64,000 nt of DNA from an uncultured Clostridia bacterium (GTDB lineage Bacteria > Bacillota > Clostridia > Oscillospirales > QAKW01): NCBI GenBank assembly GCA_937881855.1, contig CALGEL010000059.1, forward strand, positions 57,032 through 121,031. The letters are read 5' to 3'. Positions 820 to 58,010 of the stretch are shown here, piece after piece (positions within the stretch are counted from its first letter, which is position 1; every line of letters begins with the position of its first letter). Under the pieces are notes generated by a model. It did no database searches and was not told the origin of the DNA. It saw nothing but the letters and a program-made list of their open reading frames with translations. The position numbers and the translations under genes were made by a program.

Positions 820-1530
820 ATGATAGTATTTTTAAAAAATTTGATTAGTGCATGGCCATCCATTCTTATGGGAGCACTTATCCCGTGTCTTACGCTGGGT
901 GTGTTGTTTTTTTCTAAAAAACGAAAAACAACAGCATTTAAAGCTGTTTTATATGGAGCGGCTTCCTTCTTTGCGTCCCTTGCAATTGTTGCAGTTTTGA
1001 TCCTGACATTGGCACAGTTTTTTATGCCGGTAATTAGCGCTTCACAGGCATCAAGTGCAAACTCCTATATTTTCACATTTGGAATGATTGTTTTACTACT
1101 CTTTTATGGGTCTTCGGAAGCGTTAAAACAGTTTAGTTTTCGAAGTATTATCAAAAGTGAACAAAAAGAGTTCGCAGGGCTGACCTTTGGTTGTGGGTTT
1201 ATTCTTGCTCAAAATCTTTTGATTGTCGGCTTGATTTATGCAGGTGAAGTTGATACATTGCAAATGCTGGTTTTTGGCTTGTTGATGGTTATTTGCGGTG
1301 TGATCTATCTGCTGAACTCCAATCTGTGTTATTCTTTGTCGTGTGAAGGAAATTGGCAGACCGGAAGCGCCACGGCGATTTCTTATTATTTGATTTTGGC
1401 GATGATGTTGCTTTTCGCAAATGTCTATGTTGCATATATCACGATTGCCTTGGTTTTGGCATTTAATTTGGTCATTACTTTTTATATCCGTTCTCAACGG
1501 ATAAATAAGGGGGAAGAGAAAAATGCGTGA
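820..1530 (+). CDS. multi-pass integral membrane protein, function unknown (tandem paralog 1)
   Basis: The 236-aa ORF is almost entirely hydrophobic helices. It has an FFSKKRK motif after TM1, and its 3' end overlaps the next ORF's start by 8 nt. Confidence 0.6.
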   Translation: MIVFLKNLISAWPSILMGALIPCLTLGVLFFSKKRKTTAFKAVLYGAASFFASLAIVAVLILTLAQFFMPVISASQASSANSYIFTFGMIVLLLFYGSSEALKQFSFRSIIKSEQKEFAGLTFGCGFILAQNLLIVGLIYAGEVDTLQMLVFGLLMVICGVIYLLNSNLCYSLSCEGNWQTGSATAISYYLILAMMLLFANVYVAYITIALVLAFNLVITFYIRSQRINKGEEKNA

Positions 1531-2314
1531 TGTGTTGGTGTTTTACCTTCTTTCGGTTGTTCTTTTTGCGATCGGTGGTGCAGCACTTTCTTTGTTTTTT
1601 AAAAAACGCAATATTAAACCCCGCTTGACCTTTGTCTTTTTGGGGATTCTTTTTGCGGTTGTATACTTTGTCGTTTTATTTGTTTTATTTTTTAGTACAT
1701 TTAATGTAAACAGCGACCAATATTTCTATACCAAGACATATTTGATCGGAATTGGACTCGCATATGTTTTTATTTTGTCGATTGTTCGCTGTCTGCTTAT
1801 GAAAGCGGTGTTTTTCAACAAAGAATATAATGAGCAGGGGTTGTCCTTTGCCTTTGGATTTGGGCTGGCACCCGCGCTGTTTATTGCGATCTATCTGTTG
1901 CTCTTTTTCTTTGTCATTGCATATAACGGGATGTTTAACGGACCTGCCACTTGGAATTCGGAAGGCTATTTAATTTTTGCAGATAATACCATTATCAATC
2001 TGCTTCTTCCCAAAGCATCGGGCGTCCTTTATGCAATGGTGGCATTGGTCTTTTACGGAGCATTTGCATTGATTGAAGCATGGTTTTATAAGAAGATCTG
2101 CGAAAAGAATTATAAATGGTTCTACATCTTCTTGTTTCCGATCGGATTTGCATTGCTTGAAACAGCAATGATTTTACCTATTCCGTATACGAATATGAAT
2201 TCTTATTGGCAACTTAGTATTATTGCCGCAGTAGTTGTCGGCTTGTCAATAGTACTTGTTAATCTTCTCCCGAAAGAGAAGGTTCTGCCGGAATATACGA
2301 AGCAATTCGAATAG
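1523..2314 (+). CDS. multi-pass integral membrane protein, function unknown (tandem paralog 2)
   Basis: The 263-aa hydrophobic ORF has an FFKKRN motif after TM1, mirroring the upstream ORF. Its ATG overlaps the upstream stop (translational coupling). Confidence 0.6.
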   Translation: MRDVLVFYLLSVVLFAIGGAALSLFFKKRNIKPRLTFVFLGILFAVVYFVVLFVLFFSTFNVNSDQYFYTKTYLIGIGLAYVFILSIVRCLLMKAVFFNKEYNEQGLSFAFGFGLAPALFIAIYLLLFFFVIAYNGMFNGPATWNSEGYLIFADNTIINLLLPKASGVLYAMVALVFYGAFALIEAWFYKKICEKNYKWFYIFLFPIGFALLETAMILPIPYTNMNSYWQLSIIAAVVVGLSIVLVNLLPKEKVLPEYTKQFE

Positions 2315-34156: not shown

Positions 34157-34804
34157 TTATTTCTTAAAGATCTTTTTCCAAGGAATGATATAACTGATAA
34201 AATATAGGGGGATCGCCAAAACGACGGCACCAAAAACGTCTAAAATCGAATGTTGCTTTACAAAAACAGTGGATAAACAAATCGAGATGGTTAGCAATGT
34301 GACTCCGAAAAGAAGCCAGGGATGTTTCTTGCACCAATCGTTTTTTGCCAACGCAATATTCATCGCGATAGAGTTTAAACAGTGGATGCTTGGAAAGACA
34401 TTAAAATATGTGTCGGCACTTTGCAAAAGCTTCAACGAATCAATCAAAATGTTTGTTCTGCCAAGCGTTTCGTAGTCGGCGCGCAGTAATTGATAGTTGG
34501 GGAAGATCATATAAATGATTAAACAAGTTGTCATTCCAACATATAAGAATGTACACAGGCGGAGAAAATCAGAACGATTATTGAAAAATAAAAAAACATA
34601 GCCCACTGCGATATATGCAAACCAAAGAAAATAGGGAATGACAAACCATTCGCAAAAAGGAATGAGAGCATCTAAAGTGCTGTTCATTTCAAATGTAACC
34701 GTTCTTGTTGGACTATATACATTCAGCCAACCAAACCAGGGCATATAGATAAGAAAGTAGATCAGCATGACGGCATGCCAGTATTTTTTAAAAAACTTGT
34801 TCAT
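34157..34804 (-). CDS. PAP2-superfamily membrane phosphatase/phosphotransferase
   Basis: Six TM helices. PSIHCLNS and KQHSILDV resemble PAP2 C2/C3 motifs (SxH, HxxxD). Confidence 0.55.
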   Translation of the reverse strand: MNKFFKKYWHAVMLIYFLIYMPWFGWLNVYSPTRTVTFEMNSTLDALIPFCEWFVIPYFLWFAYIAVGYVFLFFNNRSDFLRLCTFLYVGMTTCLIIYMIFPNYQLLRADYETLGRTNILIDSLKLLQSADTYFNVFPSIHCLNSIAMNIALAKNDWCKKHPWLLFGVTLLTISICLSTVFVKQHSILDVFGAVVLAIPLYFISYIIPWKKIFKK

Positions 34805-34816
34805 TGTTTATTATAC

Positions 34817-35839
34817 CTAATTAAATTTATAAAATTTTCTGACGACTCGGTATCCAAAGACAGAAATTTTGCGAATAAATTTATTTTTATATGCGAAGAA
34901 ACCGGCCAAAGAACGATAACGCAAATGATTGTATACAAAGGGGAATTGTTCTTTTAAATCCTTCCAGTAGTTCATCAGTTTTTCGATTGCTTCATCGGAA
35001 CCGTCTAATGTAAGTAAAAGGGTTGCAATAGTCACCATTACGCTGGAATAACTTTGCATAAACTCAAAGAGCTTTTTGCTCTTCTTTTTAATTTCTGCCA
35101 GATCGTGCGTCTGCAACAAAAGTTTGCTGATTAAAATTTGTTGATCAACCCGCTTGATCATAACAGCTTCGTTGACCGATTGATCGGAGCGTCCGATATA
35201 ATAACGATAAAAGTCCTCATCGGTATAGTACATTGACCTTACATAAGGTAAGGGGGTATACAGAAACACATTATCGACATAAAATGTGTGGAGCGGAATT
35301 TGCAGATTGCTTTTGCGAACCAGATCTGTGCGATAAAAAACAGAATGCATAATCATATAGCGGGTAATATCAAAGGGTCCGCATTCGTCCCATGTGAATT
35401 GCTTATGGATGGGGAAGATGCGATGATAATGTATTGTATGCGTACTGTTGTCGCGCTCGTGCTCGTAAACATAATTACAGATGATTAAATCAATTAGGTT
35501 TTGATTATTATAGCACGATTCAATCAAGTCGAGAATATTCAGTAAAGAATTTTTATCGGCCCAATCGTCGGAATCAACCACCTTATAATAAAGTCCGCTT
35601 GCGGCGTTTAATCCGGCCATAATTCCGGACCCATGGCCTCCGTTTTCTTTATGAATTACTTGAACAATGCTTGGATATTTTTCGGCATACTCATTGGCAA
35701 TTTCGGCGGTTTTATCAGAGGATCCGTCGTTTACTATGATGATTTCAACCCGTTCACCGCCCACCAATAGTGAGTCAATACAGCGATGCATATAACTCTC
35801 GCTGTTGTAGCAAGGAACTGCAAATGAAATAAGCTTCAT
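34817..35839 (-). CDS. glycosyltransferase family 2
   Basis: SFAVPCYNSESYM, IIVNDGSSD, VDSDD (DxD). The ATG at 35839 is preceded by AAGGAG; the ORF-track start 35881 is rejected. Confidence 0.8.
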   Translation of the reverse strand: MKLISFAVPCYNSESYMHRCIDSLLVGGERVEIIIVNDGSSDKTAEIANEYAEKYPSIVQVIHKENGGHGSGIMAGLNAASGLYYKVVDSDDWADKNSLLNILDLIESCYNNQNLIDLIICNYVYEHERDNSTHTIHYHRIFPIHKQFTWDECGPFDITRYMIMHSVFYRTDLVRKSNLQIPLHTFYVDNVFLYTPLPYVRSMYYTDEDFYRYYIGRSDQSVNEAVMIKRVDQQILISKLLLQTHDLAEIKKKSKKLFEFMQSYSSVMVTIATLLLTLDGSDEAIEKLMNYWKDLKEQFPFVYNHLRYRSLAGFFAYKNKFIRKISVFGYRVVRKFYKFN

Positions 35840-35871
35840 ATTTGGACTCCTTTTGTTTTGATATCCTATGT

Positions 35872-35900
35872 ATTTTATCATATTTTTATATATAAATCAA
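35872..35900 (-). promoter_or_regulatory. sigmaA promoter of GT2-PAP2, overlapping the ATPase stop codon
   Basis: The minus strand reads TTGATT, a 17-nt spacer, then TAAAAT with an extended TGa. Confidence 0.55.
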
Positions 35901-36961
35901 GTTCTTGAAAAGAGTTTGGTCATCAAGTTGTCTTTTAAATGTTCGGTCGCTTTGAAATCAGTCCCAATCGCATATTCCTGCTCAATTTGCATATGGATAG
36001 TTCTGGCTTTTTTGAGTTTATCCGTTGCAAGATTTAAAATTTCTTTTTGAAGTCTTTTAATAAAAGTGAATTTATTTTTGTTTGAGTTTAGGATGGATCT
36101 ATCAAGCATATTTTGAAGATTAATTTTTTTGATTACTTGTTCTTCGTCTATGGGAAAATCAAAATATCCGTCTTTTGATATAATTGAAAGGTCGGCTTGC
36201 GGGATGATGATATGGTGCAATGTTTCTTTGCCGAGCAGCGGGTGATAGGAATTGATATGGTCAATCCCGCGTTTTGAAAGTTGCCGCTCAATATAGTTTA
36301 AAAATGGAGCCGCGATCATCCAGCGGTCTTCAAGGAGAATGATGTTTTTTCCAAGCATATGAATAGTTTCTGATAATGTATGCATCCCATCGGGTGAGAT
36401 CGCAGATAAAAATCGTTTTAAAATTTTGGCGCGACGGTTTTGGTTTTCCCATAACGCATTTTGCATCATTATTTTGTTTCCGATTTTTTGCATTTTTTCA
36501 AAATCAAGCTGTTTATATAGCGGAGCAAAGCATCCGGCGTGAATGTCTGCTGCACTTTTGAGAAGATGATAGCACGCTTGATATAAATTACTTTTTTGAT
36601 CGCAAAGTTCGATAATTTTTTTATCATTTAACTTATTGGGATCCCAACCTTCGCCCAAATCAATGATGTTCCCGCCGACTCCCGGGTATTTAGGCTCAAA
36701 ACTATGGGGGTTCGTGGCATCAATAATGACGGAATTTTGCTTGGGTAATATAACGCCATCCAAACTATTCGGATCTCCGGAACAGTAGATAAGTTCGGCG
36801 TCGGATACTTGATTGGCGATTGTAGTCATAAGTGTACTTTTGCCGCATCCGGGGCCACCCTTTATGTAGTAGATATGGCTTCTTTTTTCGTTTAAAATTG
36901 TATCAAAAAAGGAGATAAAACCTTCGCCGCTATTGGCGGCGCAATATGTCTTGAATTTCAT
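35897..36961 (-). CDS. P-loop ATPase of unknown function (resembles the PRK06851-type family I recall from spore formers)
   Basis: Walker A KGGPGCGKST, CSGDPNSLDGVILP, IDATNPHSFEPKYPG, LGEGWD. GGAGGTGA is upstream. Confidence 0.65.
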   Translation of the reverse strand: MKFKTYCAANSGEGFISFFDTILNEKRSHIYYIKGGPGCGKSTLMTTIANQVSDAELIYCSGDPNSLDGVILPKQNSVIIDATNPHSFEPKYPGVGGNIIDLGEGWDPNKLNDKKIIELCDQKSNLYQACYHLLKSAADIHAGCFAPLYKQLDFEKMQKIGNKIMMQNALWENQNRRAKILKRFLSAISPDGMHTLSETIHMLGKNIILLEDRWMIAAPFLNYIERQLSKRGIDHINSYHPLLGKETLHHIIIPQADLSIISKDGYFDFPIDEEQVIKKINLQNMLDRSILNSNKNKFTFIKRLQKEILNLATDKLKKARTIHMQIEQEYAIGTDFKATEHLKDNLMTKLFSRT

Positions 36962-44788: not shown

Positions 44789-45325
44789 ATGAAGCAGTGT
44801 ACCCCGATTGTTTTGGAAGAATATGATGGTGAATTATTCTTTTCAATAATAAACCATGAGCTTCTTGGTGATGCTTGCGTTATGACGCTTGGCGCAAAGG
44901 ATGGGGAAGAGCTTGTTGGCTTTAAGATCTCTGTACCTTTGGTAACCAGACGCTTTATGTTTAAGGCGATGCAGTTCATTGTTCCTTCGGGAACTGTTCA
45001 GATTTCGTCGATCGGTGAAAAAAGCGATCGACTGATCAAAACCTTGACGAAATACTTCAATCCGTCTTATGAACCTTCTGACGGGTTTACAGACGAAGTT
45101 GTTGAAGTGGACTACAAACTTCGCAATCAAGGCGGATACGATCTGAATCAAGATAAAATCTATTTAAAATTTTATTATGATGAAGAGCAAGATGCAGATC
45201 TTCCTAAAAACGAGCGTGTTCATCTGAATATGAATTTTACATTTAATCTTTCTCGTGAGTCTGCAAGTTTGATCGAAACAGAAGAAGGATATTCTGCCGA
45301 TTTGATTGCTTTCTTAATGAAATAA
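44789..45325 (+). CDS. hypothetical cytoplasmic protein, no recognisable motif
   Basis: The 178-aa ORF starts 7 nt after the nrdR stop. Composition is non-repetitive with no TM or signal peptide. Confidence 0.5.
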   Translation: MKQCTPIVLEEYDGELFFSIINHELLGDACVMTLGAKDGEELVGFKISVPLVTRRFMFKAMQFIVPSGTVQISSIGEKSDRLIKTLTKYFNPSYEPSDGFTDEVVEVDYKLRNQGGYDLNQDKIYLKFYYDEEQDADLPKNERVHLNMNFTFNLSRESASLIETEEGYSADLIAFLMK

Positions 45326-45356: not shown

Positions 45357-45432
<76 letters not shown>

Positions 45433-45435
45433 AAC

Positions 45436-45469
45436 AAAAAATCCGTTCTCGAAAGAGAACGGATTTTTT
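45436..45469. terminator. bidirectional terminator (tRNA-Thr / LicD operon)
   Basis: The stem aaaaaatccgttctc pairs with gagaacggatttttt across a gaaa loop. Confidence 0.85.
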
Positions 45470-45472
45470 GTG

Positions 45473-46408
45473 TTAATCGATGATGTTATTTTCTTGATTT
45501 TCGTCTAATGCAATTTGATTTTGTTCTTCAATATCCTTTTTTTGAATGTAATACAGGAGTTCTTCTTTGAGCGCCCCATCGTATTTTGTAATATCGATTT
45601 TAATGTTTAATTTATGCGCTGTTCTTTGTTTTTCGGGTGGGAGCTCTAAGTAATCATTAAACTGTCCGGTCAAATAATGATTATAATCGGGCATGGCAGG
45701 GAACATTTTTCCTCTGAGTTCCACTTCGACTGATTGAGCAAAGGTTTCTTTGCTCATTGTTCCTTTTATTATAGCCTGCGCAACAATTTCACCCACTTCA
45801 TGGGCATTTTCTGCGCCGCGATATTTCTGCGCGGTTTTAGTGATTTTTTTACAGACTTTATTATTTAAGCCCAACCAACGAGCAATAATGCCAATCGGTG
45901 TTTTTTTGAGTTTTATTAAAAGGGTCTTTCCGCTCCAAGGGGGGAGATTAAAAAGAAGTCGCCACTTTCTTAACCTAAACATTTCTTTTTGGAAGTGTTC
46001 TCTCTTGACTAAATCGTCCGGAACTTCGTCGACAGGCAGAATATCAATCCATAGATTGCGCATCGTTAAGGATTGTTTGCTTGTAGTGTATGTGCGGGTA
46101 TCAATCATACGAGAGAAGGCTTGACCATCAAGGCCGTGATCAATACTAATGATTTTATAATAGGGATTGCAGAAGGATTTTCCTGCATATTTTTCTAAGA
46201 AAGATTCATAATCATCGCGCAGCATAAATAAATCGATGTCATCATCCCAAGGAATTAAATCCTTATGACGAATAGCGCCCAATAGGGTACCACCGGCCAA
46301 TGAATAGGCATAACCTTCCTTTTTGCAAAGTTTATCGAATTCACACAGCATATCAAAGGTAATAGCCTGGGAACATTGAATTCGATTAAGTTCTATAAAT
46401 GCGTGCAT
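45473..46408 (-). CDS. LicD-family phosphotransferase (copy 1)
   Basis: YSLAGGTLLGAIRHKDLIPWDDDIDLFM. Confidence 0.85.
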   Translation of the reverse strand: MHAFIELNRIQCSQAITFDMLCEFDKLCKKEGYAYSLAGGTLLGAIRHKDLIPWDDDIDLFMLRDDYESFLEKYAGKSFCNPYYKIISIDHGLDGQAFSRMIDTRTYTTSKQSLTMRNLWIDILPVDEVPDDLVKREHFQKEMFRLRKWRLLFNLPPWSGKTLLIKLKKTPIGIIARWLGLNNKVCKKITKTAQKYRGAENAHEVGEIVAQAIIKGTMSKETFAQSVEVELRGKMFPAMPDYNHYLTGQFNDYLELPPEKQRTAHKLNIKIDITKYDGALKEELLYYIQKKDIEEQNQIALDENQENNIID

Positions 46409-46433
46409 TTTTTACTTTTCCCCTTTAATTAAA

Positions 46434-47723
46434 TTATTTAAAAAGTTGGTTATATAGCTTGTTAAAATTGATAAAATCATCGCTTGTGAAACGCATATTC
46501 TGATCTTTGTGATCACGCAACATGATGAGTAAACGCTGAAGAATATAGCGCATACCGGTACCCTCAAAATTATAGCAATAGCGTTTTTTGTATTCGTTAT
46601 CGAGATGCTTAATTTCGAAATATCCGGTATTCCACCATTCATCCGGTAAGGTAATAACACCTTTATCGCCATATATAACAAGCTTGTTTGGAAGGTCGAT
46701 GCTGTTGCTGATTTCCATGGTGGCGGCTGCATTGTCCATCCTTGCTTGAAGTTGCATATAAAAGCCGTTTTCTCCAATGGGATTGGTGAATAGATGGAAA
46801 TCGGCGGGACGATTTTTAAAGAGCTTATAGAAAGCATATAGTCCGTAGGATTGCAGTTCGGAAAGATTTCGACCATCCGAATCTTTGCAAAACATAGAAC
46901 AATGCAGGTTTAAAACTTTTCCGATCGAACCGCTTTCAATCATCCAAAACATCTGATTAAGTGCTTGTATATATGACATTTTTACACAAGGAAGCAAAAT
47001 CACATTTTTTTCTTTGGAGAGAGTCATAAGGGACCTAAACTCATCCTCCGCAAGCAAGGCGGGGAAAGAAAGTAATACATGCTTGCCCGCTTCCAATGCA
47101 GGACGAATGTAAGGAAGTTGAGACTTGCCATCCCCTTGAATATAGACGGTATTGATGCCGTCTAAAAATTCTTCAAGATTGGAGTATGCCCCTCTCAACT
47201 CATAGTTCTGGCAAGCTTGATTGGCAGTATCGGCATCCGAATTGAAAACACGATCTACGTGAATACCACTGACATATTTACTTTCCAAAACAAAGCCTTT
47301 ATCATCGGTACTATCGAGTATCATACCGATTTGCAGGTGCTGTTGCTGTTGGCGAAGCATGGTGCTGGAAATATCTTTGGTACGCTCCAAATATACCACT
47401 TCGCAATATTCTTTCAAATAATCAAATTTTCCGCGCCAGTCGGAACCAACCACTAAAACATCAACATTATAGTTTTGGACATCTTGAATTTTTTGGCCTT
47501 GAAATTCTTCCACAATGATCTCGTCTGCAAGGCCGGTCTTTCTGACGTTCTCAATTCTCTGGGGCAGGCTGTCTTGAACGCCGATCTTTCCGCGCTCGAC
47601 ATCGTAGTTTTCTCCGGTCACGCCTACAATCAAATAGTCGCCTAAATCTTTGGCACGCTTGATAATATTGTAATGGCCTTGATGAAATAAATCAAAGGTA
47701 CCGTATGTGATAACTTTTTTCAA
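46434..47723 (-). CDS. fusion: TagD/ECT-type cytidylyltransferase (N) + Gfo/Idh/MocA-like domain with degenerate cofactor motifs (C)
   Basis: The N-terminus has YGTFDLFHQGH (HxGH) and ERTKDISSTML (RTxGISTT-like). The C-terminal ~300 aa has PALEAGKHVLLSFP where oxidoreductases carry GKHVxxEKP, and it lacks GxGxxG. The TTG start is 6 nt after GGAGGTG. Confidence 0.75.
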   Translation of the reverse strand: MKKVITYGTFDLFHQGHYNIIKRAKDLGDYLIVGVTGENYDVERGKIGVQDSLPQRIENVRKTGLADEIIVEEFQGQKIQDVQNYNVDVLVVGSDWRGKFDYLKEYCEVVYLERTKDISSTMLRQQQQHLQIGMILDSTDDKGFVLESKYVSGIHVDRVFNSDADTANQACQNYELRGAYSNLEEFLDGINTVYIQGDGKSQLPYIRPALEAGKHVLLSFPALLAEDEFRSLMTLSKEKNVILLPCVKMSYIQALNQMFWMIESGSIGKVLNLHCSMFCKDSDGRNLSELQSYGLYAFYKLFKNRPADFHLFTNPIGENGFYMQLQARMDNAAATMEISNSIDLPNKLVIYGDKGVITLPDEWWNTGYFEIKHLDNEYKKRYCYNFEGTGMRYILQRLLIMLRDHKDQNMRFTSDDFINFNKLYNQLFK

Positions 47724-47725
47724 AG

Positions 47726-49465
47726 TTACACCTCCTCGTTCATAAATCGGTCCAGAATATCTTGCGGTATTGCCGGTTCCTGATTATAGATGGGATTTCC
47801 GAAATTTGTTTTGGGATATGCCTTGGTGGGTTCATTGAAAACAAACTCTACCAACAAGGGATGCCCTTTTTTGCGTTGCTGCAATACAGAATCAATCTGC
47901 TCAATTTGGTCTATTCGGACCGCATCAATCCCATAAGCTTTCGCCACTTCGGTAAAGTTTGGAGATGAAAAATCGGGGGATGCGGCACCATGGTAATTTC
48001 CATCAAACAGAGAATCTTGTTGCTGGGTGATCAGCCCCAAGGAATTGTTATTGAATACAAAGACTACAACATTCAAGTCTTCATTTTTAAGCCATTGTAA
48101 TTCTTGTATATTCATCTGAAAGGCGCCGTCACCGCAAAAACAATAAACCGTTTTATTCGGGTGGGCAACTCCTGCGCCAATCGCCGCAGGAAGCGCGTAA
48201 CCCATAGCACCGTGGGCACCGGAGAACATAATGGTCAACTCTTTTTTTGATTGGAGTGATTGTCCGATCCACATCATATGTTGACCGACATCACATGCAA
48301 CAATATCGTTCTCATCGATATGTGGATTGATTGCTTCAATTACATGGTTGGGCAAACTATAAGTGACAGAATCATCAAAAGATTCGCAAAAGTTTTTATA
48401 TCTACTGCAAAAGTCCAACCATTGATTGGAAACTTTGGGCCAATCTTTCCATCGATTTTGATTGTCATCTAATGTTTGAGCAAGATCGGAAGAATCGATT
48501 AAAATACCGATCTCATCGGGCTTGATTTTTCTCTTTAATTCGTTTGGATCAATGTCGAAACGCAAAACCTTTGCATTGGGGGCAAACTCTTGCACTTTGG
48601 TCCCTGTTTGACGAGTGCAAAGCGAACACCCGATAGCAATGATTTGGTCGGCTTTAGCGGCAACAATTAAATTGGCATAACGATTACCATAGGCGCCGCC
48701 GATGTAACCAAAATTGAGAGAATGGTCATGGGGCAAAATATCTTTGCCCATAAGGCTGGTAACAATAGGTAAGTTGAGTCCTTCTGCAAAACGGACAAAG
48801 CTTGCTCTGTGTTTACGGTCGATGCCGTTGCCTAACATCAAAACAGGACGCGCAGAAGACGCCAAGGCTTGTTCCAAAACATCGATGGCGTTAATGGATT
48901 GTGAATTTGTCTGTTGTTCTTTTTGAGTGAGGGCGGGAACTTCGATTTCTGCACGCTGAATATTCATAGGCAGATCCAGCAGAACAGGGCCTTTCCGTCC
49001 TGTGGTTGCCAGTTCGTATGCCTTTTCTAATGCGGCGGGGATTTGGTTGGGATCTCTAATTTCAACGGCATACTTGGTAATAGGGCGGCAAATATCGACT
49101 GTTTTGGTCTCCTGAAAAGCATCTTGACGCAAATCTTCGTTATCTTCGTAGCGCTCGTAGGTGTTAATCTGCCCGGTGATAAATACTACGGGGATAGAAT
49201 CATAGTAGGCGTTTGCAATACCGGAAACTAAATTGAGCGCGCCCGGACCGCTGGTAGCATATGCCACAGCACATTTTCCTGTGGAACTCGAATAGCCGCA
49301 AGCGGCAAAAGATGCGCCTTGCTCATTATAGCAAACATGGTTTTTAGCCTTATCGTTTTTGCCGATGGAATCGACAAAATGGGCGATCATCGTTCCCTGA
49401 TAGCCAAAAAAGTCACAAATATTCTTTTCTACAAAATAATTGACGATATAGTCTGAAACTTTCAC
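47726..49465 (-). CDS. thiamine-diphosphate-dependent enzyme, acetolactate-synthase-like
   Basis: YATSGPGALN, and GDGAFQMNIQELQ...VVFVFNNNSLG (the GDG-x24-NN ThDP motif). GTG start after AGAGGAA. Confidence 0.85.
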   Translation of the reverse strand: MKVSDYIVNYFVEKNICDFFGYQGTMIAHFVDSIGKNDKAKNHVCYNEQGASFAACGYSSSTGKCAVAYATSGPGALNLVSGIANAYYDSIPVVFITGQINTYERYEDNEDLRQDAFQETKTVDICRPITKYAVEIRDPNQIPAALEKAYELATTGRKGPVLLDLPMNIQRAEIEVPALTQKEQQTNSQSINAIDVLEQALASSARPVLMLGNGIDRKHRASFVRFAEGLNLPIVTSLMGKDILPHDHSLNFGYIGGAYGNRYANLIVAAKADQIIAIGCSLCTRQTGTKVQEFAPNAKVLRFDIDPNELKRKIKPDEIGILIDSSDLAQTLDDNQNRWKDWPKVSNQWLDFCSRYKNFCESFDDSVTYSLPNHVIEAINPHIDENDIVACDVGQHMMWIGQSLQSKKELTIMFSGAHGAMGYALPAAIGAGVAHPNKTVYCFCGDGAFQMNIQELQWLKNEDLNVVVFVFNNNSLGLITQQQDSLFDGNYHGAASPDFSSPNFTEVAKAYGIDAVRIDQIEQIDSVLQQRKKGHPLLVEFVFNEPTKAYPKTNFGNPIYNQEPAIPQDILDRFMNEEV

Positions 49466-49476
49466 AAATGATTCCT

Positions 49477-50217
49477 CTATTCAAAATTATATCCGCCATC
49501 GACCGACAGAACAGCACCGTTAATATATGGGTTGGTCAGTAATGACATAGTAGCTCGGGCAACCTCTTCCGGTTGACCAAAGCGATGAACGGCCACCTTG
49601 CGGCGGATGTTGTTTAAATGTTCTTCTGTACGATTGCCCGGGAACATATCGGTTTCAATAAAAGCGGGGGCAACGGTATTTACGGTGATCTTTCGCTCCG
49701 CCAATTCTTTAACCAACATTTTGGCAAGAAAAACCTCGCTGGATTTGGTTAATCCATAGGGGATATAGGTGGAATGGGGATAGATGCCAACATTGGAACT
49801 GATAAAGGCAATAGAACCTCCGTCTACCATGTGTTCTACCATATCTTGCACCAAAAAGAACGGAGTAAATAGATTCATTTGAAACATTTCTTCCATTTCT
49901 TGCGGGGTTACTTTACCAAATGGGTTGCGGGTCTTTCCGTTGGAAGATGAATTTAGCACCAAACCGTGAAGAGGATGCTTATCGAGATCCATCTGCTCTA
50001 AAATAGCAGGGATCGAATCGGTGCGGGATACATCAGCTTTAATAATCTTGAAACTGTTGGAGTATCCTAAACTGATCAGATAATCGGCACAAGCTTGGGC
50101 GCCTTTATCATCGTGAACATAGTTGAGATATACATAATAGTCGGCTTTCAGCGCTTCAATAGCGATGGCTTTACCAATCCCTTTTGTGGAGCCGGTAATA
50201 AAAATAGATTTCTTCAT
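49477..50217 (-). CDS. short-chain dehydrogenase/reductase
   Basis: ITGSTKGIGKAIA (TGxxxGxG), the NSSS region and YGLTKSS (YxxxK). Confidence 0.85.
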   Translation of the reverse strand: MKKSIFITGSTKGIGKAIAIEALKADYYVYLNYVHDDKGAQACADYLISLGYSNSFKIIKADVSRTDSIPAILEQMDLDKHPLHGLVLNSSSNGKTRNPFGKVTPQEMEEMFQMNLFTPFFLVQDMVEHMVDGGSIAFISSNVGIYPHSTYIPYGLTKSSEVFLAKMLVKELAERKITVNTVAPAFIETDMFPGNRTEEHLNNIRRKVAVHRFGQPEEVARATMSLLTNPYINGAVLSVDGGYNFE

Positions 50218-50231
50218 TGGTTATTCCTCGA

Positions 50232-50996
50232 TTATATTCTATTTGACAGGTTGTCCCTGAAACGTTTATGCCTACGGCGTGTCAAAAGGTCTTCTTTTGG
50301 AGTCATATAATCCTCTCCGTAAGAGATTTTGAGAACGGCATCGTAATTTTTAAATATAAAAAAATTATGTTCTTCAAATGGTTGCTCAATCAAATTATCG
50401 AGATACTCTGCGGGTATGATTCTATGCAAATATCGGGCGGAATCATTCGACATATGGATATATGCCTTTTTTCCGTCAAAGGCATTTTTACTGAACCATT
50501 TATAAAACCGCATCTTTGCTTTTTGGGGAATCGGTCGCCCTAAAAAACTAACGAAGCGATAAATATTATATTTTAATGCGCTGTGTTCTTCTATGCTGGT
50601 GAGTTTGATGGTTTCTTTGGTTTTTAGCAGTGCTTGAAGGATGATTAGTCCATAGATACGAATCTTTTGCAAAAACTTATTTTCGGTTATATAGTCATAC
50701 ACAAATATATCTGCGGAAATATACGGATTTTCTTTACTAATTATTTGCAAAGCACCGCCGACATATCCTTCCAGCAGACTATATTCCCGGCTTTGTTTCG
50801 GGAAAATTTCTTTAAAGCGTTCGTAATTTTTTCGGGACATAGCAAGATCTATGTCATCATCCCAAGAAATAAAACCGTTTTCGCGAACAGCACCCAATAA
50901 CGTGCCGCCTTGAAGCGTATATTTGATGTCGAATTGCCGACAAATTGCATCGACATCGCAAAGTAAGGATAATAGTTGTTGTTGGTTTTCGTTCAT
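50232..50996 (-). CDS. LicD-family phosphotransferase (copy 2)
   Basis: YTLQGGTLLGAVRENGFISWDDDIDLAM. Confidence 0.85.
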   Translation of the reverse strand: MNENQQQLLSLLCDVDAICRQFDIKYTLQGGTLLGAVRENGFISWDDDIDLAMSRKNYERFKEIFPKQSREYSLLEGYVGGALQIISKENPYISADIFVYDYITENKFLQKIRIYGLIILQALLKTKETIKLTSIEEHSALKYNIYRFVSFLGRPIPQKAKMRFYKWFSKNAFDGKKAYIHMSNDSARYLHRIIPAEYLDNLIEQPFEEHNFFIFKNYDAVLKISYGEDYMTPKEDLLTRRRHKRFRDNLSNRI

Positions 50997-51039: not shown

Positions 51040-51068
51040 ATACTATCATATAATTATTATTTTTTCAA
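51040..51068 (-). promoter_or_regulatory. candidate sigmaA promoter of the LicD operon
   Basis: The minus strand reads TTGAAA, a 17-nt spacer, then TAGTAT with an extended TGa. Confidence 0.4.
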
Positions 51069-51149
51069 GCGTTTTACTATTGCTATGTTCTTTTTATCAT
51101 AGTCTGTTATGGCGTGAATAAACTATATAAAAGAAAGCGTGGTGAACGA

Positions 51150-51962
51150 ATGATTTCGACTTTTATAAAAGGGTTATGGATCGGGAGCACATTATCAGTT
51201 CCCGGAATCAGCGGCGGAACAATGGCAATGTTGGTTGGAATTTATGAACCGTTGGTTCGTTCTATCAATAAAACAATTTCAAAAGATAAAAGAAAAAAAG
51301 ATGCGATTTTATTTCTTTTGGTATTCTCGGCCGGCGGAATTCTTGGCTTTTTAGCAATTTCTTCGGTGATTTTAAATTTAATTCAAATTGCACCTATGCC
51401 AATGACATTTCTATTTTGCGGTGTCATTCTCGGCGGTGTTCCAAAGATTTTTGAAGAGATCAAAAAAGATCGGTTTAATTGGGTTGATCTGCTGTATATT
51501 TTTATAGGTGTATTGATCGTTCTCTTTATATCGTATCTGCCAAAAGATTTGTTTCAAATTGGAAATTCCTTTGGTTTTTGGAGTGTGATAAAACAAATTG
51601 TTGGCGGATTAATTGTGGCTTTTGCTTTGGTTTTACCCGGGATCAGCGTTTCTCAAATGCTATATGTTTTAGGAATATATGAGAGCGTTATAAGGGCGGC
51701 TTCATCGTTAAATATATTGGCGTTATTACCAATGGTATGCGGGATTTCTCTTGGAATTCTATTGTTTGCAAGGTTGATGGATGTTTGCTTTGTTAGATAT
51801 AGAAAACCGGTTTATGCCATTATATTCGGATTTGTTTTGGGCTCTGTATTTGAGCTGTTTTCTCGCGGAATAAGCGGTGAATTTTCGCTTTTATGTATAC
51901 CATTATTCATCATTGGATATTGTTTAATGCACTTAATTTCAAAAAAGCAAGCCGATGCATAA
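51150..51962 (+). CDS. DUF368 membrane protein (PopT-type polyprenyl-phosphate transporter family)
   Basis: GLWIGSTLSVPGISGGTMAMLVGIYE and a second LVLPGISVSQML half-repeat; about 8 TM. I prefer the ATG at 51150 over the ORF-track GTG at 51114. Confidence 0.8.
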   Translation: MISTFIKGLWIGSTLSVPGISGGTMAMLVGIYEPLVRSINKTISKDKRKKDAILFLLVFSAGGILGFLAISSVILNLIQIAPMPMTFLFCGVILGGVPKIFEEIKKDRFNWVDLLYIFIGVLIVLFISYLPKDLFQIGNSFGFWSVIKQIVGGLIVAFALVLPGISVSQMLYVLGIYESVIRAASSLNILALLPMVCGISLGILLFARLMDVCFVRYRKPVYAIIFGFVLGSVFELFSRGISGEFSLLCIPLFIIGYCLMHLISKKQADA

Positions 51963-55347: not shown

Positions 55348-56016
55348 ATGGGAATAAATATCGCTATTGATGGGCCGAGTGGTGCGGGCAAAAGCACATT
55401 AGCAAGAAAATTGGCTGCAAAATTAGATTTTATCTATGTTGATACCGGTGCAATGTATCGCACCATCGGATTATACATTTACAGAAAAGGAATTGACCCC
55501 CAAGATGTGGATCAAGTGGCGGCGGTGCTGCCCGAAATCAAGGTTGAACTCTCTTTTGTCGACGGGGAGCAGCGGGTATATCTGAATGGGGAAGATGTTT
55601 CTACGGAAATTCGCTTGCATGAAGTGAGTCAATATGCTTCGCTCACAAGCGCGATCCCTGCCGTTCGTTCGTATCTCTTTGATATGCAACAAACACTTGC
55701 GGCTGAAAATAATGTCATTATGGACGGACGCGATATCGGAACGGTTGTTTTGCCGAATGCGGATGTTAAAATCTTTTTGACAGCGCGTCCGGAAGTGCGG
55801 GCGCAACGGAGATATGATGAACTTTTAGAACGCGGGCAAGAAGTGGAATTCGATCAAATCCTTGCCGATGTAATTCGCAGAGACGAGCAAGATATGAACC
55901 GCCCTGTTGCACCGTTGAAGCCGGCGGAGGATTCGATTATTCTTGATACATCCGGAAATACATTTGAACAATCTTTGGACTTGCTTTATAACACCGTGAA
56001 GGAGCGAATTTCTTGA
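55348..56016 (+). CDS. cmk: cytidylate kinase
   Basis: IAIDGPSGAGKST, YVDTGAMYR, DGRDIGT. Confidence 0.93.
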   Translation: MGINIAIDGPSGAGKSTLARKLAAKLDFIYVDTGAMYRTIGLYIYRKGIDPQDVDQVAAVLPEIKVELSFVDGEQRVYLNGEDVSTEIRLHEVSQYASLTSAIPAVRSYLFDMQQTLAAENNVIMDGRDIGTVVLPNADVKIFLTARPEVRAQRRYDELLERGQEVEFDQILADVIRRDEQDMNRPVAPLKPAEDSIILDTSGNTFEQSLDLLYNTVKERIS

Positions 56017-58010
56017 TGAAACAGGTTCGGACGATAGAGCACGCCGGTTTTTGCTTTGGCGTTTCGCGTGCAGTTGAAATGCTTGAAAAGGAAATTGAGT
56101 TGGGAAGTGCGCCTTTGTATACAGTGGGCCCGATTATTCATAACCCTCAAATTATCGATGATATGCGCCAAAAAGGGGTTCAAATCGCAGAAAGTGTATC
56201 GCAACTACCTTCTGATTGCACCGCAGTTATTCGTGCGCATGGGATAACCAAAGAGGATCGGGCATATCTGGAAGAAAACAAAATTCGGTATGTGGATGCC
56301 ACGTGTCCCTTTGTTGAGAAGATTCATCGCATTGTCGAAAGTGAAAAAGAAAATGTTGTCTTAATTGGCGGAAATCCCGATCATCCCGAGGTGATGGGTA
56401 TTCGCAGTTGCGGCGGAAATGAAACATTTGTGTTTAAAAATGTCGACGAATTAGATGAATTGTCTAAAAAACATCTTGATTTTTCGTCAAAATACATAGT
56501 TGTTGTATGGCAAACGACATTTAATTTAAACGAATATGAAAAATGTTTATCTTTTCTTAAAAAAACCTTTGAATATTTAAAAGTTTATGATACAATATGT
56601 AAAGCGACTCAAATCAGGCAGCAAGAAACCGCTGCTTTGGCTTCCGAAAGCGATGCTATGATCATCGTCGGCGGAAAGCAGAGTTCAAACACGGCAAAGT
56701 TGTTTTCCATTGCGAAAGCAGCATGCCCCTGCACGATTTTAATCGAGCAAGCAAACGAGGTACCAATAAATTTATTATATAAAGAGAGGATTGGTATTGC
56801 AGGTGGGGCTTCCACCCCCGTCTGTATCATCGAGGAGGTAAAACGTATTATGTCGGAACAAAATGTGAACTTGGTTGAGGAAGAAATGACCTTTGAGCAG
56901 ATGCTTGAGAATTCCTTAAAAGTAATTAGTAATGGAGATAGGGTGAAAGGCATCGTTGTCGGAGTGAATCCGTCCGAAGTGAAGGTTGACCTTGGAACTA
57001 AGTATTCCGGCTTCATCACCAGAGATAATTTCTCTGCAGATTCCAATGTGGATCTTATGAACGATGTTGCTATTGGCGATGAAATTGAATGCATCGCTTT
57101 GAGAGTAAACGATATCGAAGGTACTGTTGCTCTTTCTAAGAAAAAGGTTGATGCTATGGCCGGTTTTGAAAAACTGGAAAAAGCATGCGAAGAAAAAGCG
57201 ACTTTGGAAGGCAAGGTTGTTGAAGTTACCAACGGTGGCCTGACTGTTTTGATTGATGGTTCTCGCGTATTTGTACCTAAGTCTTTGTCCGGTAAACCCC
57301 GCAACTTTGATTTTGACACTATGTTAAATGAAGTTGTTGCTTTGCAGATTGCAGAGATTTCTGTGGTTCGCGGTCGCAAGAAGGTGATCGGCTCCATGCG
57401 TGCGATCGAGGCTGAAAAGCGTAAGGCTGCTCGCCAAGAATTTTGGGATAACGCAGCAGTTGGCAATCGCTACAATGGTGTTGTCAAGTCCCTGACCACC
57501 TTTGGTGCGTTCATCGATTTGGGTGGTGTTGATGGCTTGCTTCACATCACCGAGATGTCTTGGGGCAAAATTAAGCATCCCAGCGATGTTATGAATGTCG
57601 GCGATGAAGTGGATGTATACATCAAAGCAATCGACGATGAGAAAAAGAAGATTTCTTTGGGCTATAAAAAGGCTGAGGACAATCCCTTTGTTCTGTTCAC
57701 CAATCAGTATTCTGTCGGCGATGTTGCAACCGTTAAGATTATGAACCTGATGCCCTTTGGCGCATTTGCTCGCATTATCGACGGTGTTGACGGTTTGATT
57801 CATATTTCTCAGATCAGCACCAAGCACATTGCAAAGCCTGCCGATGTTTTAAAGGTTGGCGATGAAGTTGAGGTTAAGATCGTTGACATCAACGAAGAAA
57901 CTCAGAAGGTTGGCCTTTCCATTCGCGCTTTGATGGATGAGGCTGCAGAGGCAGAAGAGGCACTTCCTGTTGAAGAAGTGACCGAAGTTGAAGAAGCAAC
58001 CGAAGAATAA
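56013..58010 (+). CDS. ispH: fusion of 4-hydroxy-3-methylbut-2-enyl diphosphate reductase (IspH) and ribosomal protein S1 repeats
   Basis: The N-terminus has AGFCFGVSRAV, ATCPFV and GGASTP. The C-terminus has four S1 motifs (for example GVVKSLTTFGAFIDLGGVDGLLHITEMS). The TTG at 56013 or the ATG at 56016 overlaps the cmk stop. Confidence 0.9.
   Translation: MMKQVRTIEHAGFCFGVSRAVEMLEKEIELGSAPLYTVGPIIHNPQIIDDMRQKGVQIAESVSQLPSDCTAVIRAHGITKEDRAYLEENKIRYVDATCPFVEKIHRIVESEKENVVLIGGNPDHPEVMGIRSCGGNETFVFKNVDELDELSKKHLDFSSKYIVVVWQTTFNLNEYEKCLSFLKKTFEYLKVYDTICKATQIRQQETAALASESDAMIIVGGKQSSNTAKLFSIAKAACPCTILIEQANEVPINLLYKERIGIAGGASTPVCIIEEVKRIMSEQNVNLVEEEMTFEQMLENSLKVISNGDRVKGIVVGVNPSEVKVDLGTKYSGFITRDNFSADSNVDLMNDVAIGDEIECIALRVNDIEGTVALSKKKVDAMAGFEKLEKACEEKATLEGKVVEVTNGGLTVLIDGSRVFVPKSLSGKPRNFDFDTMLNEVVALQIAEISVVRGRKKVIGSMRAIEAEKRKAARQEFWDNAAVGNRYNGVVKSLTTFGAFIDLGGVDGLLHITEMSWGKIKHPSDVMNVGDEVDVYIKAIDDEKKKISLGYKKAEDNPFVLFTNQYSVGDVATVKIMNLMPFGAFARIIDGVDGLIHISQISTKHIAKPADVLKVGDEVEVKIVDINEETQKVGLSIRALMDEAAEAEEALPVEEVTEVEEATEE

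Follow-up and report, generated by a model that had tools for sequence, protein, structure and literature searches.

A LicD–SDR–ThDP enzyme–cytidylyltransferase fusion–LicD operon of gut Clostridia as a candidate pathway for a non-standard, CDP-activated phospho-polyol decoration

A stretch of 64,000 nucleotides from an uncultured Clostridia bacterium (contig CALGEL010000059.1, positions 57,032 to 121,031 of the forward strand), hereafter the window, carries a minus-strand run of five co-directional genes (50996–45473). These encode a LicD-family protein, a short-chain dehydrogenase/reductase (SDR), a thiamine diphosphate (ThDP) enzyme, a cytidylyltransferase fused to a Gfo/Idh/MocA-like domain (the CTase-GFO fusion), and a second LicD-family protein. 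Judged from its genes, the operon would constitute a self-contained pathway for making and transferring the precursor of a non-standard phospho-polyol, which would serve as a decoration or repeat unit of a cell-wall glycopolymer; we give this reading an even chance. The general kind of system is a known one, namely a cytidine diphosphate (CDP)-alcohol donor pathway combined with LicD transferases for the decoration of wall polymers. Three features seem to be new: a C–C bond-forming ThDP step that feeds a CDP-alcohol/LicD pathway, a YerE-like enzyme beyond deoxyhexose chemistry and the lipopolysaccharide (LPS) of Gram-negative bacteria and mycobacteria, and a cytidylyltransferase fused to a degenerate Gfo/Idh/MocA domain. 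The original prediction, made from this DNA alone, had not recognized the gene combination as a described pathway, and our literature searches, whose coverage did not include a 2024 survey of YerE-like clusters, likewise found no description of it. That survey, by Krug, is said to take in more than 200 such clusters.

The five genes and the two domains of the fusion protein are as follows.

50232..50996, minus strand: LicD-A, a LicD-family phosphotransferase of 254 aa (Pfam LicD 3.5e-31, full profile)
49477..50217, minus strand: SDR, a classical FabG-like ketoreductase of 246 aa (adh_short 2.5e-34, adh_short_C2 3.8e-38)
47726..49465, minus strand: ThDP enzyme of 579 aa with a GTG start (TPP_enzyme_N/M/C 3e-30, 8e-29 and 1.5e-43)
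46434..47723, minus strand: CTase-GFO fusion of 429 aa with a TTG start (CTP_transf_like 4.5e-18 and GFO_IDH_MocA 6.7e-07)
47346..47723, minus strand: N-terminal TagD-like cytidylyltransferase domain of the fusion, ~aa 1–126 (CTP_transf_like 4.5e-18)
46434..47342, minus strand: C-terminal Gfo/Idh/MocA-fold domain of the fusion, ~aa 128–429 (predicted structure and Foldseek)
45473..46408, minus strand: LicD-B, 311 aa, with a C-terminal extension (Pfam LicD 2.1e-35)

All five open reading frames (ORFs) were recovered where the original prediction had placed them on the minus strand, and each domain was confirmed by Pfam. The motifs it had quoted (GGTLLGAVR, GGTLLGAIR, WDDDIDL twice, and FHQGH) are present in the translations. 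Gene callers produced the same five genes, with the same lengths, on other contigs from the same and related species. The genes are separated by 14, 11, 2, and 25 nt, as small as had been expected, and a GAGG-type Shine-Dalgarno sequence precedes each of the five. The expectation that these sequences lie inside the preceding gene holds for the fusion gene only; that of the ThDP gene coincides in part with the stop codon before it, and the rest are in the gaps.

The ThDP enzyme belongs to a family in which the catalytic Glu47 and the GDG...NN motif are invariant. Its relatives are annotated as 'acetolactate synthase large subunit' and its best NCBIfam model is TIGR00118, which would favor its being the organism's acetolactate synthase, serving branched-chain amino acids or acetoin and located among wall genes by coincidence. 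However, the enzyme scores 412 bits on TIGR00118, below the equivalog cutoff of 538. It has no ilvN or ilvC partner, and neither an IlvN/IlvH small subunit nor an ilv operon context occurs in the cassette or the window. In another locus, L089, a cassette-type ThDP gene and fusion pair shares its contig with a complete ilvB-ilvN-ilvC operon at a distance of 5 kb, and the true IlvB scores 681 bits on the same model versus 426 for the cassette enzyme. A bootstrapped neighbor-joining tree placed the cassette enzymes and the acetohydroxyacid synthases (AHASs; the IlvB from the same contig, E. coli IlvB, and Arabidopsis AHAS, with no outgroup) in separate clades, each with 100% support. In addition, the AHAS motif RFDDR is replaced by RQTG, and the ThDP gene is linked to the fusion gene in 39 of 44 loci (below). 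Acetolactate synthesis as the function is thus effectively excluded. By its sequence the cassette enzyme is not an orthologue of IlvB/AlsS but a paralogue of IlvB, and the corresponding refutation foreseen in the original prediction fails.

The closest structurally characterized relative of the enzyme appears to be a YerE-type carboligase. A profile built from 35 members of the cassette family gave its best PDB match to 5ahk, which we take to be PpYerE, at 463 bits, compared with 401 for E. coli AHAS I and 375 for plant AHAS; this is a margin of 62 bits with a single YerE-like reference. Two indels are common to the cassette family and 5ahk and absent from the three AHASs. One is an insertion of six to seven residues after GQ(I/L/V)N, and the other is the RQTG replacement, which has one extra residue and reads (C/M)x(R)QTG. 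The alignment also reaches further toward the C-terminus with 5ahk (query residue 564) than with E. coli AHAS I (553) or plant AHAS (530). As the neighbor-joining tree lacks an outgroup, it cannot place PpYerE with the cassette clade, and we therefore rely on the indels and the profile score. On these grounds the cassette enzyme resembles a YerE-like carboligase of the AHAS/YerE superfamily, and would be closer to PpYerE than to AHAS.

YerE is a ThDP enzyme that acts together with the reductase YerF to branch a CDP-linked keto sugar (PMC9306805, PMC12247030). YerE-like lyases add acyl branches, from pyruvate or longer 2-keto acids, to CDP-4-keto-3,6-dideoxyglucose, and YerF acts after them (PMC9306805, PMC12247030). 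The CDP-donor routes listed in the original prediction, none of them with a ThDP enzyme, leave out this branching of a CDP-keto sugar by YerE/YerF.

The N-terminal domain of the fusion protein is most closely related to structures of TagD (1coz, 1.9e-33; 2b7l, 4.6e-31) and more weakly to ethanolamine-phosphate cytidylyltransferase (3elb, 1.5e-9). Its active site motifs are preserved: HxGH (H13, G15, and H16) and K46 are invariant among the 35 members of the fusion family, as are R113, T114, I117, S118, S119, and T120, such that the RTEGISTT of TagD reads RTKDISST in the window. This domain is therefore, to judge from its sequence, a competent-looking TagD-type cytidylyltransferase. It appears, though, not to be a plain TagD, as the fusion scores 110.2 bits on the glycerol-3-phosphate cytidylyltransferase (TagD) equivalog TIGR01518, under the cutoff of 165.4. 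A true TagD (172.2 bits) is encoded beside the fusion in L062, from Longibaculum muris DSM 29487, which makes it unlikely that the two cytidylyltransferases are redundant. No separate TagD occurs near the window cassette.

The C-terminal ~300 residues were modeled by AlphaFold2 with pLDDT mostly 85–96, and form a complete two-domain Gfo/Idh/MocA fold. A Foldseek search with this model returned 4had, 3e9m, 3evn, KijD10, and GnnA (TM-score normalized to target ~0.8, E 4e-20, 15–19% identity). The Pfam GFO_IDH_MocA match begins only at profile position 27. The GxGxxG dinucleotide-binding loop is absent from all 35 members, its position reading G-x-x-(L/T/V)-(D/E/N)-x-x-x-D. The EKP lysine is likewise missing from all 35, where SFP, SCP, DSP, DAP, or DTP is found, and no conserved catalytic Asp, His, or Tyr is present in any. 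Other motifs, new to such domains, are invariant: ESKYVSGxH, (D/E)WWNTGYFE, and KRYxxNxEGxGxRY. The predicted fusion to a Gfo/Idh/MocA-like domain is thus borne out as to fold, but the cofactor and catalytic motifs of a redox enzyme are not there; the domain is probably not a dehydrogenase but a degenerate fold with a non-canonical role. Oxidation of CDP-glycerol by this domain, to give a CDP-ketone for the ThDP enzyme, was considered and rejected as the default, since none of the 35 members has the GxGxxG loop, the EKP lysine, or the catalytic Asp/His/Tyr.

Both LicD proteins exceed the cutoff of 22.6 bits on the LicD profile PF04991 (LicD-A, 109.5 bits; LicD-B, 123.3 bits) and contain the GGTLLGAVR or GGTLLGAIR and the WDDDIDL motifs. 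LicD-A has a weak PDB match to FKRP. The two are accordingly assigned by sequence to the LicD-family phosphotransferases, and both are predicted to transfer a phospho-alcohol from a CDP donor. The SDR scores 118.9 bits on adh_short and has an ITGSTKGIG sequence (TGxxxGIG) and a YGLTK sequence (YxxxK). It falls below every NCBIfam equivalog cutoff, and its best PDB matches are FabG and carbonyl reductases. The SDR gene is adjacent to the ThDP gene in the window, and we liken its product to YerF by role alone.

The five genes form a co-conserved unit, kept as a set in roughly 200 gut Firmicute species, with two architectures differing in gene order. The order LicD-SDR-ThDP-fusion-LicD is identical in relatives whose ThDP enzymes are 85%, 71%, and 56% identical to that of the window. 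The relative at 85% has the same chromosomal flanks as the window, and at 71% and 56% the cassette lies within glycopolymer loci (Bac_transf, Glf, DUF4422, ABC-2 exporter, Wzy_C, and Acyl_transf_3). At 47–49% identity, the order is instead fusion, LicD-TPR, a gene of 388–396 aa, ThDP, and SDR; the 388–396-aa gene encodes a divergent LicD. The retention of the same five components despite the changed order argues for functional coupling. The position of LicD-A is kept in L001, L003–L005, and L009–L015, and LicD-B is conserved as the last gene of window-type cassettes.

A search with the fusion protein in a collection of one genome per species found ~230 loci, mostly in Blautia, Ruminococcus, Lachnospiraceae, and Oscillospirales, including the cultivable Blautia wexlerae, B. 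luti, B. schinkii, and B. faecis. The closest relatives of the window are metagenome-assembled genomes (MAGs) of Acutalibacteraceae/Eubacteriales at 93–96% identity. Co-occurrence was counted in the 44 species loci in which the sequence extends 8 kb or more to either side of the fusion gene. A ThDP gene is near the fusion in 39 of these, an SDR gene in 38, and at least two LicD genes in 38; all of these components are found together in 36. The check on co-occurrence across relatives that the original prediction had called for is therefore positive. In a scan of neighbors in 80 species loci, an Acyl_transf_3 homologue was found in 49, and minorities had ABC-2 exporters (12/80) or Bac_transf (5/80). 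An LCP enzyme is also encoded in some loci that have glycopolymer genes. A link to the Dlt system (D-alanylated teichoic acid), prompted by Dlt-like genes in L003 and L008, was discarded as a general feature, with 0 of 80 loci in the scan showing it.

Window- or Blautia-type cassettes were also seen in bins labeled Prevotella (L016 and L045), Phascolarctobacterium (L015), and Eggerthellaceae (L039). These off-phylum labels probably reflect MAG binning error with Blautia-like sequence rather than horizontal transfer, and such bins were left out of the taxonomic breadth given above. One metagenomic protein, P0038 (956 aa), has an N-terminal region of ~380 aa, without a Pfam match, fused to the ThDP enzyme. 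Judging by position, the region probably corresponds to the divergent LicD found in Blautia-type loci, and P0038 could be either a true fusion or an artefact of assembly or frameshift.

Variant loci are informative about what the fusion protein may activate. Five of the loci with full flanks carry the fusion without the ThDP enzyme or SDR. In L058, L082, and L066, a HisC/CobD-like pyridoxal phosphate (PLP) enzyme occurs in place of the ThDP enzyme and SDR. A row of genes in L062 (8265–16716) encodes an ABC-2 (TagGH-like) exporter pair, the true TagD, the fusion, a GNAT protein, a class-V aminotransferase resembling PhnW/AepZ/SerC, and two LicDs, one of 556 aa and the other a LicD-like ORF of 381 aa that was found only by an iterated LicD profile. 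This row, in a cultivable organism, looks like a pathway for decoration with an N-acylated amino-alcohol phosphate. The substrates of the HisC/CobD-like and PhnW/SerC-like PLP families are small phosphate or phosphonate compounds, from which it would appear that the variable enzymes supply a small phospho-alcohol for the fusion to activate.

Two of these loci, from Lachnospiraceae MAGs, have further features. In L058 (7486–14394) and L082 (7037–14025), the fusion gene is followed by the HisC/CobD-like gene and by one for a 666-aa paralogue resembling methionyl-tRNA synthetase (235 bits versus a cutoff of 587), and is preceded by genes for a radical-SAM protein and a 405-aa protein of no assigned family. 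No LicD gene was found within 8 kb in either. These loci represent a different use of the CTase-GFO fusion.

In a further variant, L090 (8001–15633), the fusion has no part: a cassette-type ThDP enzyme is encoded with a cytidylyltransferase of the IspD/TarI family, an extended SDR of the nucleoside diphosphate (NDP)-sugar type, a 669-aa LicD, and an Acyl_transf_3 protein. With 162 and 154 bits, the cytidylyltransferase narrowly misses the IspD and ribitol-5-phosphate cytidylyltransferase cutoffs. This non-orthologous swap of the activating enzyme is strong evidence that the ThDP enzyme, reductase, cytidylyltransferase, and LicD belong to one pathway. Enzymes of the IspD/TarI type activate C5 polyol or ketose phosphates, and the presence of one in L090 points to a C5 product.

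These loci also bear on whether the fusion might make ordinary CDP-glycerol, with the LicDs adding glycerol phosphate and the ThDP enzyme and SDR making a separate, non-phosphorylated unit (of acetoin, butanediol, or hydroxy-acyl type) for the same polymer. The similarity of the cytidylyltransferase domain to TagD, its retention of K46, HxGH, and RTxxISST, and the lack of a separate TagD near the window cassette are all in keeping with such a role, as is L061, where the fusion is accompanied only by an ABC-2 (TagGH-like) exporter pair and a gene for an LCP ligase. Against it stand the sub-cutoff score on the TagD equivalog (110 versus 165 bits) and the true TagD beside the fusion in L062. The linkage of ThDP and fusion genes in 39 of 44 loci and the swapped cytidylyltransferase of L090 would moreover be hard to explain if the two branches were unrelated. 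We consider this explanation quite unlikely.

Our preferred and most economical scheme, in which the ThDP enzyme would build the carbon skeleton of the phospho-alcohol, has four steps; the donor and acceptor, the sequence of reactions, the product, and the polymer that receives it are all inferred. No kinase was found in the cassette or among the annotated window ORFs (every one of 200 aa or more, together with those flanking the cassette), and the phosphate must therefore come with a central metabolite. In the first step, the YerE-like enzyme would decarboxylate pyruvate and join the C2 unit to a phosphate-bearing carbonyl acceptor, most likely a triose phosphate: dihydroxyacetone phosphate (DHAP), a ketone, or D-glyceraldehyde-3-phosphate, an aldehyde. 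DHAP would suit a YerE-type enzyme, and HisC-like transaminases likewise use ketone substrates of the DHAP type. The product would be a C5 hydroxy-ketone phosphate, which from D-glyceraldehyde-3-phosphate would be a 1-deoxypentulose phosphate resembling 1-deoxyxylulose 5-phosphate (DXP).

The first step might instead be a plain decarboxylation of a 2-keto acid, with 3-phosphohydroxypyruvate converted to phosphoglycolaldehyde, which the SDR would reduce to 2-hydroxyethyl phosphate for activation to a CDP-C2 alcohol. This would be the phosphate-ester analogue of the Ppd step and subsequent aldehyde reduction in phosphonate pathways (PMC6697681). The PhnW/AepZ-like and CobD/HisC-like PLP enzymes of the variant loci could then make the amino analogue, phosphoethanolamine, and the cytidylyltransferase is, as noted, somewhat similar to ethanolamine-phosphate cytidylyltransferase (3elb, 1.5e-9). 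The enzyme, however, falls in the carboligating AHAS/YerE branch, with no Ppd or sulfopyruvate decarboxylase family among its NCBIfam matches, and the IspD/TarI-type cytidylyltransferase of L090 points to a C5 rather than a C2 substrate. This possibility seems very unlikely to us.

In the second step of the preferred scheme, the new keto group would be reduced by the SDR, as by YerF after YerE, to yield a deoxy or C-branched pentitol phosphate. In the third, the TagD-like domain would use CTP to form the CDP-alcohol, the Gfo-fold domain taking no redox part and probably serving as a scaffold or ligand-binding module. In the fourth, the two LicDs would use the CDP donor to place the phospho-polyol on a glycan, either at two sites or with one LicD priming and the other extending. 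By analogy, the scheme would be a non-homologous parallel of DXS-DXR-IspD followed by LicD transfer.

The order of these steps could also be reversed at the outset. The fusion would then make a CDP-ketone (for example CDP-dihydroxyacetone from DHAP, or a CDP-ketopentose), to which the ThDP enzyme would add a C2 branch, just as YerE does with CDP-4-keto-3,6-dideoxyglucose; the SDR would reduce the acetyl branch in the manner of YerF, and the LicDs would carry out the transfer. In the routes to CDP-xylulose (AbpA/AbpB) and CDP-6-fructose (C. jejuni HS:5), a ketose phosphate is likewise cytidylylated before it is reduced. YerE and YerF themselves work on a CDP-linked acceptor (PMC9306805, PMC12247030), the fold of the Gfo-like domain resembles the NDP-sugar oxidoreductases KijD10 and GnnA and could bind a CDP intermediate, and the reductase of L090 is of the extended, NDP-sugar type. 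The SDR of the window, on the other hand, is a FabG-like classical SDR, and the PLP enzymes that replace the ThDP enzyme and SDR come from families that use free phospho or phosphono compounds rather than nucleotide-linked ones. Furthermore, without GxGxxG and the EKP lysine, the Gfo-like domain cannot generate the ketone. We regard activation before carboligation as a serious alternative, though a rather unlikely one.

Several observations weigh against the scheme in which carboligation and reduction precede activation. YerE uses a CDP-linked ketone and the L090 SDR is of the NDP-sugar type, so the cytidylyltransferase could act first; the arrangement of L090 has, in addition, been seen once. 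Locus L061, with the fusion alone beside an exporter and LCP, fits a plain CDP-glycerol role. The methylerythritol phosphate (MEP) pathway is present, as indicated by an IspH encoded in the window, and DXP itself is already at hand. The strongly conserved motifs of the Gfo-like domain suggest a specific task, which the scheme leaves unexplained. The likeness to YerE consists of two indels and a 62-bit margin with respect to one reference, and the ThDP enzyme is no more identical in pairwise comparison to PpYerE (33%) than to AHAS (32–34%), in a setting where the tree is unrooted and without outgroup. The presumed identity of 5ahk with PpYerE has the numbering of V479 as its only support. This residue, named in PMC12247030, corresponds to V499 of the 5ahk chain, given an offset of 20 residues from the query start.

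With these points in mind, we put forward the complete proposal tentatively and with less than even confidence. Dominant Firmicutes of the human gut (Blautia, Ruminococcus, Lachnospiraceae, and Oscillospirales) would have a wall glycopolymer that is built from, or decorated with, a hitherto undescribed 1-deoxy- or C-branched pentitol phosphate, whose skeleton is made de novo from pyruvate and triose phosphate by a YerE-like carboligase. Activation would be by the TagD-like domain, and the Gfo domain would have a non-redox function as scaffold, substrate binder, or new catalytic site. The fusion would be a hub for CDP-activation, working elsewhere with PLP enzymes on amino-alcohol phosphates.

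The system most similar in its chemistry is the YerE/YerF module (yersiniose A; PpYerE, ErwE, JanthE, and MMAR_2332), which also has a ThDP carboligase of the acetolactate synthase fold, an NAD(P)H reductase, and a CDP-activated surface precursor. Unlike this module, the annotated cassette loci have no ddhABCD-type, NDP-hexose synthase, or dehydratase genes, and they have LicD phosphotransferases instead of glycosyltransferases, a TagD-like cytidylyltransferase, and Gram-positive gut anaerobes as hosts. Given the LicDs in combination with a TagD-like cytidylyltransferase, a small phospho-alcohol or ketone, and not a hexose, is the probable acceptor. The pneumococcal Lic system (LicA/B/C, LicD1/LicD2) and the fukutin/FKRP tandem resemble the cassette in having two LicD-family paralogues encoded with an enzyme for the CDP donor. 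The cassette differs in having no choline kinase, transporter, or LicC-type transferase, and in having a TagD-like cytidylyltransferase with a ThDP/SDR front end.

The CDP-alditol routes (TagD, TarI/TarJ, Bcs1, AbpA/AbpB, Gtp1-3, and the CDP-6-glucitol of C. jejuni) share with the cassette a cytidylyltransferase and one reductase, which in those routes provide the phospho-polyol donor for polymers of the wall or capsule. Their products include CDP-glycerol (TagD), CDP-ribitol (TarI/TarJ and Bcs1), CDP-arabinitol (AbpA/AbpB), and CDP-2-glycerol (Gtp1-3). These routes start from a ready-made sugar or triose phosphate, and we know of none that builds the skeleton with a ThDP enzyme. The cassette cytidylyltransferase differs further from theirs in falling under the TagD equivalog cutoff and in carrying the degenerate Gfo/Idh/MocA domain. 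The start of the MEP pathway (DXS, DXR, and IspD) would be a parallel, as proposed above, in that a ThDP enzyme joins the C2 unit of pyruvate to triose phosphate and a reductase and cytidylyltransferase give a CDP-C5-polyol. The enzymes are, however, not homologous (acetolactate synthase fold versus transketolase-like DXS, SDR versus DXR, and TagD-like versus IspD, except in L090), and the product would go to LicDs rather than to isoprenoids, making this an analogy only. Lastly, tailoring of phosphonates (Ppm, Ppd, PhnW, and PntC) with LicD transfer also combines a ThDP enzyme, nucleotidyl activation, and LicD (PMC6697681), from which the cassette differs in three respects: there is no phosphoenolpyruvate (PEP) mutase among the annotated window ORFs, the ThDP enzyme is of AHAS/YerE type and not Ppd, and the cytidylyltransferase is TagD-like and not LicC/PntC-like.

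The operon is bordered by the following elements.

51040..51068, minus strand: promoter-like site, TTGAAA-17 nt-TAGTAT, TG-extended (9/12 consensus matches)
~45434..45471, minus strand: intrinsic terminator hairpin with A-run, 17-bp stem, and U-run (sequence and RNAfold, -23.9 kcal/mol)
45357..45432, plus strand: tRNA-Thr(CGT), abutting the operon terminator
51114..51962, plus strand: PopT-like polyprenyl-phosphate transporter (DUF368/VCA0040-like), divergent (Pfam VCA0040-like 3.5e-40)

The promoter-like site lies ~45 nt upstream of LicD-A, within a 117-bp divergent spacer shared with the PopT-like gene. The original prediction of such an element is right insofar as the site exists, but a scan of this AT-rich region gave 21 sites versus 16.5 expected by chance, and the site at 51068–51040 is not statistically distinctive and constitutes weak evidence. 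The predicted terminator was confirmed: the operon is closed by a real one, consisting of a 17-bp hairpin followed by a U-run. A consensus scan did not list it, and the hairpin was identified by reading the sequence and by RNAfold. As the hairpin is flanked by an A-run on one side and a U-run on the other, it could terminate transcription from both directions. The tRNA-Thr(CGT) gene ends 2 nt from the hairpin on the opposite strand. Between nrdR and this tRNA gene is a 178-aa ORF (44789–45325, plus strand) with no Pfam family, whose position is kept in related contigs; no gene for its exact product is on record in the assembly collection.

The PopT-like neighbor scores 115 bits on the NCBIfam PopT model, whose cutoff is 400. 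It is beside the cassette in L001 and L092 and not in L003, L004, L006, or L008, and is context only, being syntenic with the cassette in this lineage and not elsewhere. Housekeeping genes make up the rest of the window: those for FolD, RecJ, RelA, LigA, GatB, Dus, SerA/SerC-like proteins, a hydrogenase of the HydABC type, a sigma factor, CdaA/CdaR, NrdR, Cmk, an IspH-S1 fusion, MiaB, and MutS. No ilvB, kinase, PEP mutase, licA/licB, or polysaccharide locus was found among the annotated ORFs of the window, in line with the earlier statement that PEP mutase and licA/licB are absent. The IspH (LytB) domain occurs in a 665-aa protein (56013–58010, plus strand), fused to S1 RNA-binding repeats, and its presence indicates that the organism uses the MEP pathway and that DXP is already available in the cell. 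At 34157–36961 (minus strand) are genes for a PAP2 phosphatase (215 aa), a GT2 glycosyltransferase (354 aa), and a 354-aa protein without a clear family. This cluster may be a module for polyprenyl-phosphate-linked glycosylation, with no link to the cassette established. Two adjacent ORFs at 820–2314 (plus strand), which encode 236 and 263 aa, match no Pfam family at E≤1e-4.

Wall teichoic acids and phospho-alcohol decorations govern phage adsorption, immune recognition, autolysin targeting, and cation balance, yet very little has been learned of envelope chemistry in the abundant gut Clostridia. With the cassette present in cultivable Blautia, the identity of the CDP-activated alcohol and of its carrier polymer is directly testable. 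If the product is a new polyol, it would add a building block to teichoic acid chemistry and would extend YerE-type ThDP branching past deoxysugars and Gram-negative LPS. It would also provide new carboligases for biocatalysis and an example of a dehydrogenase fold kept after the loss of its cofactor site.

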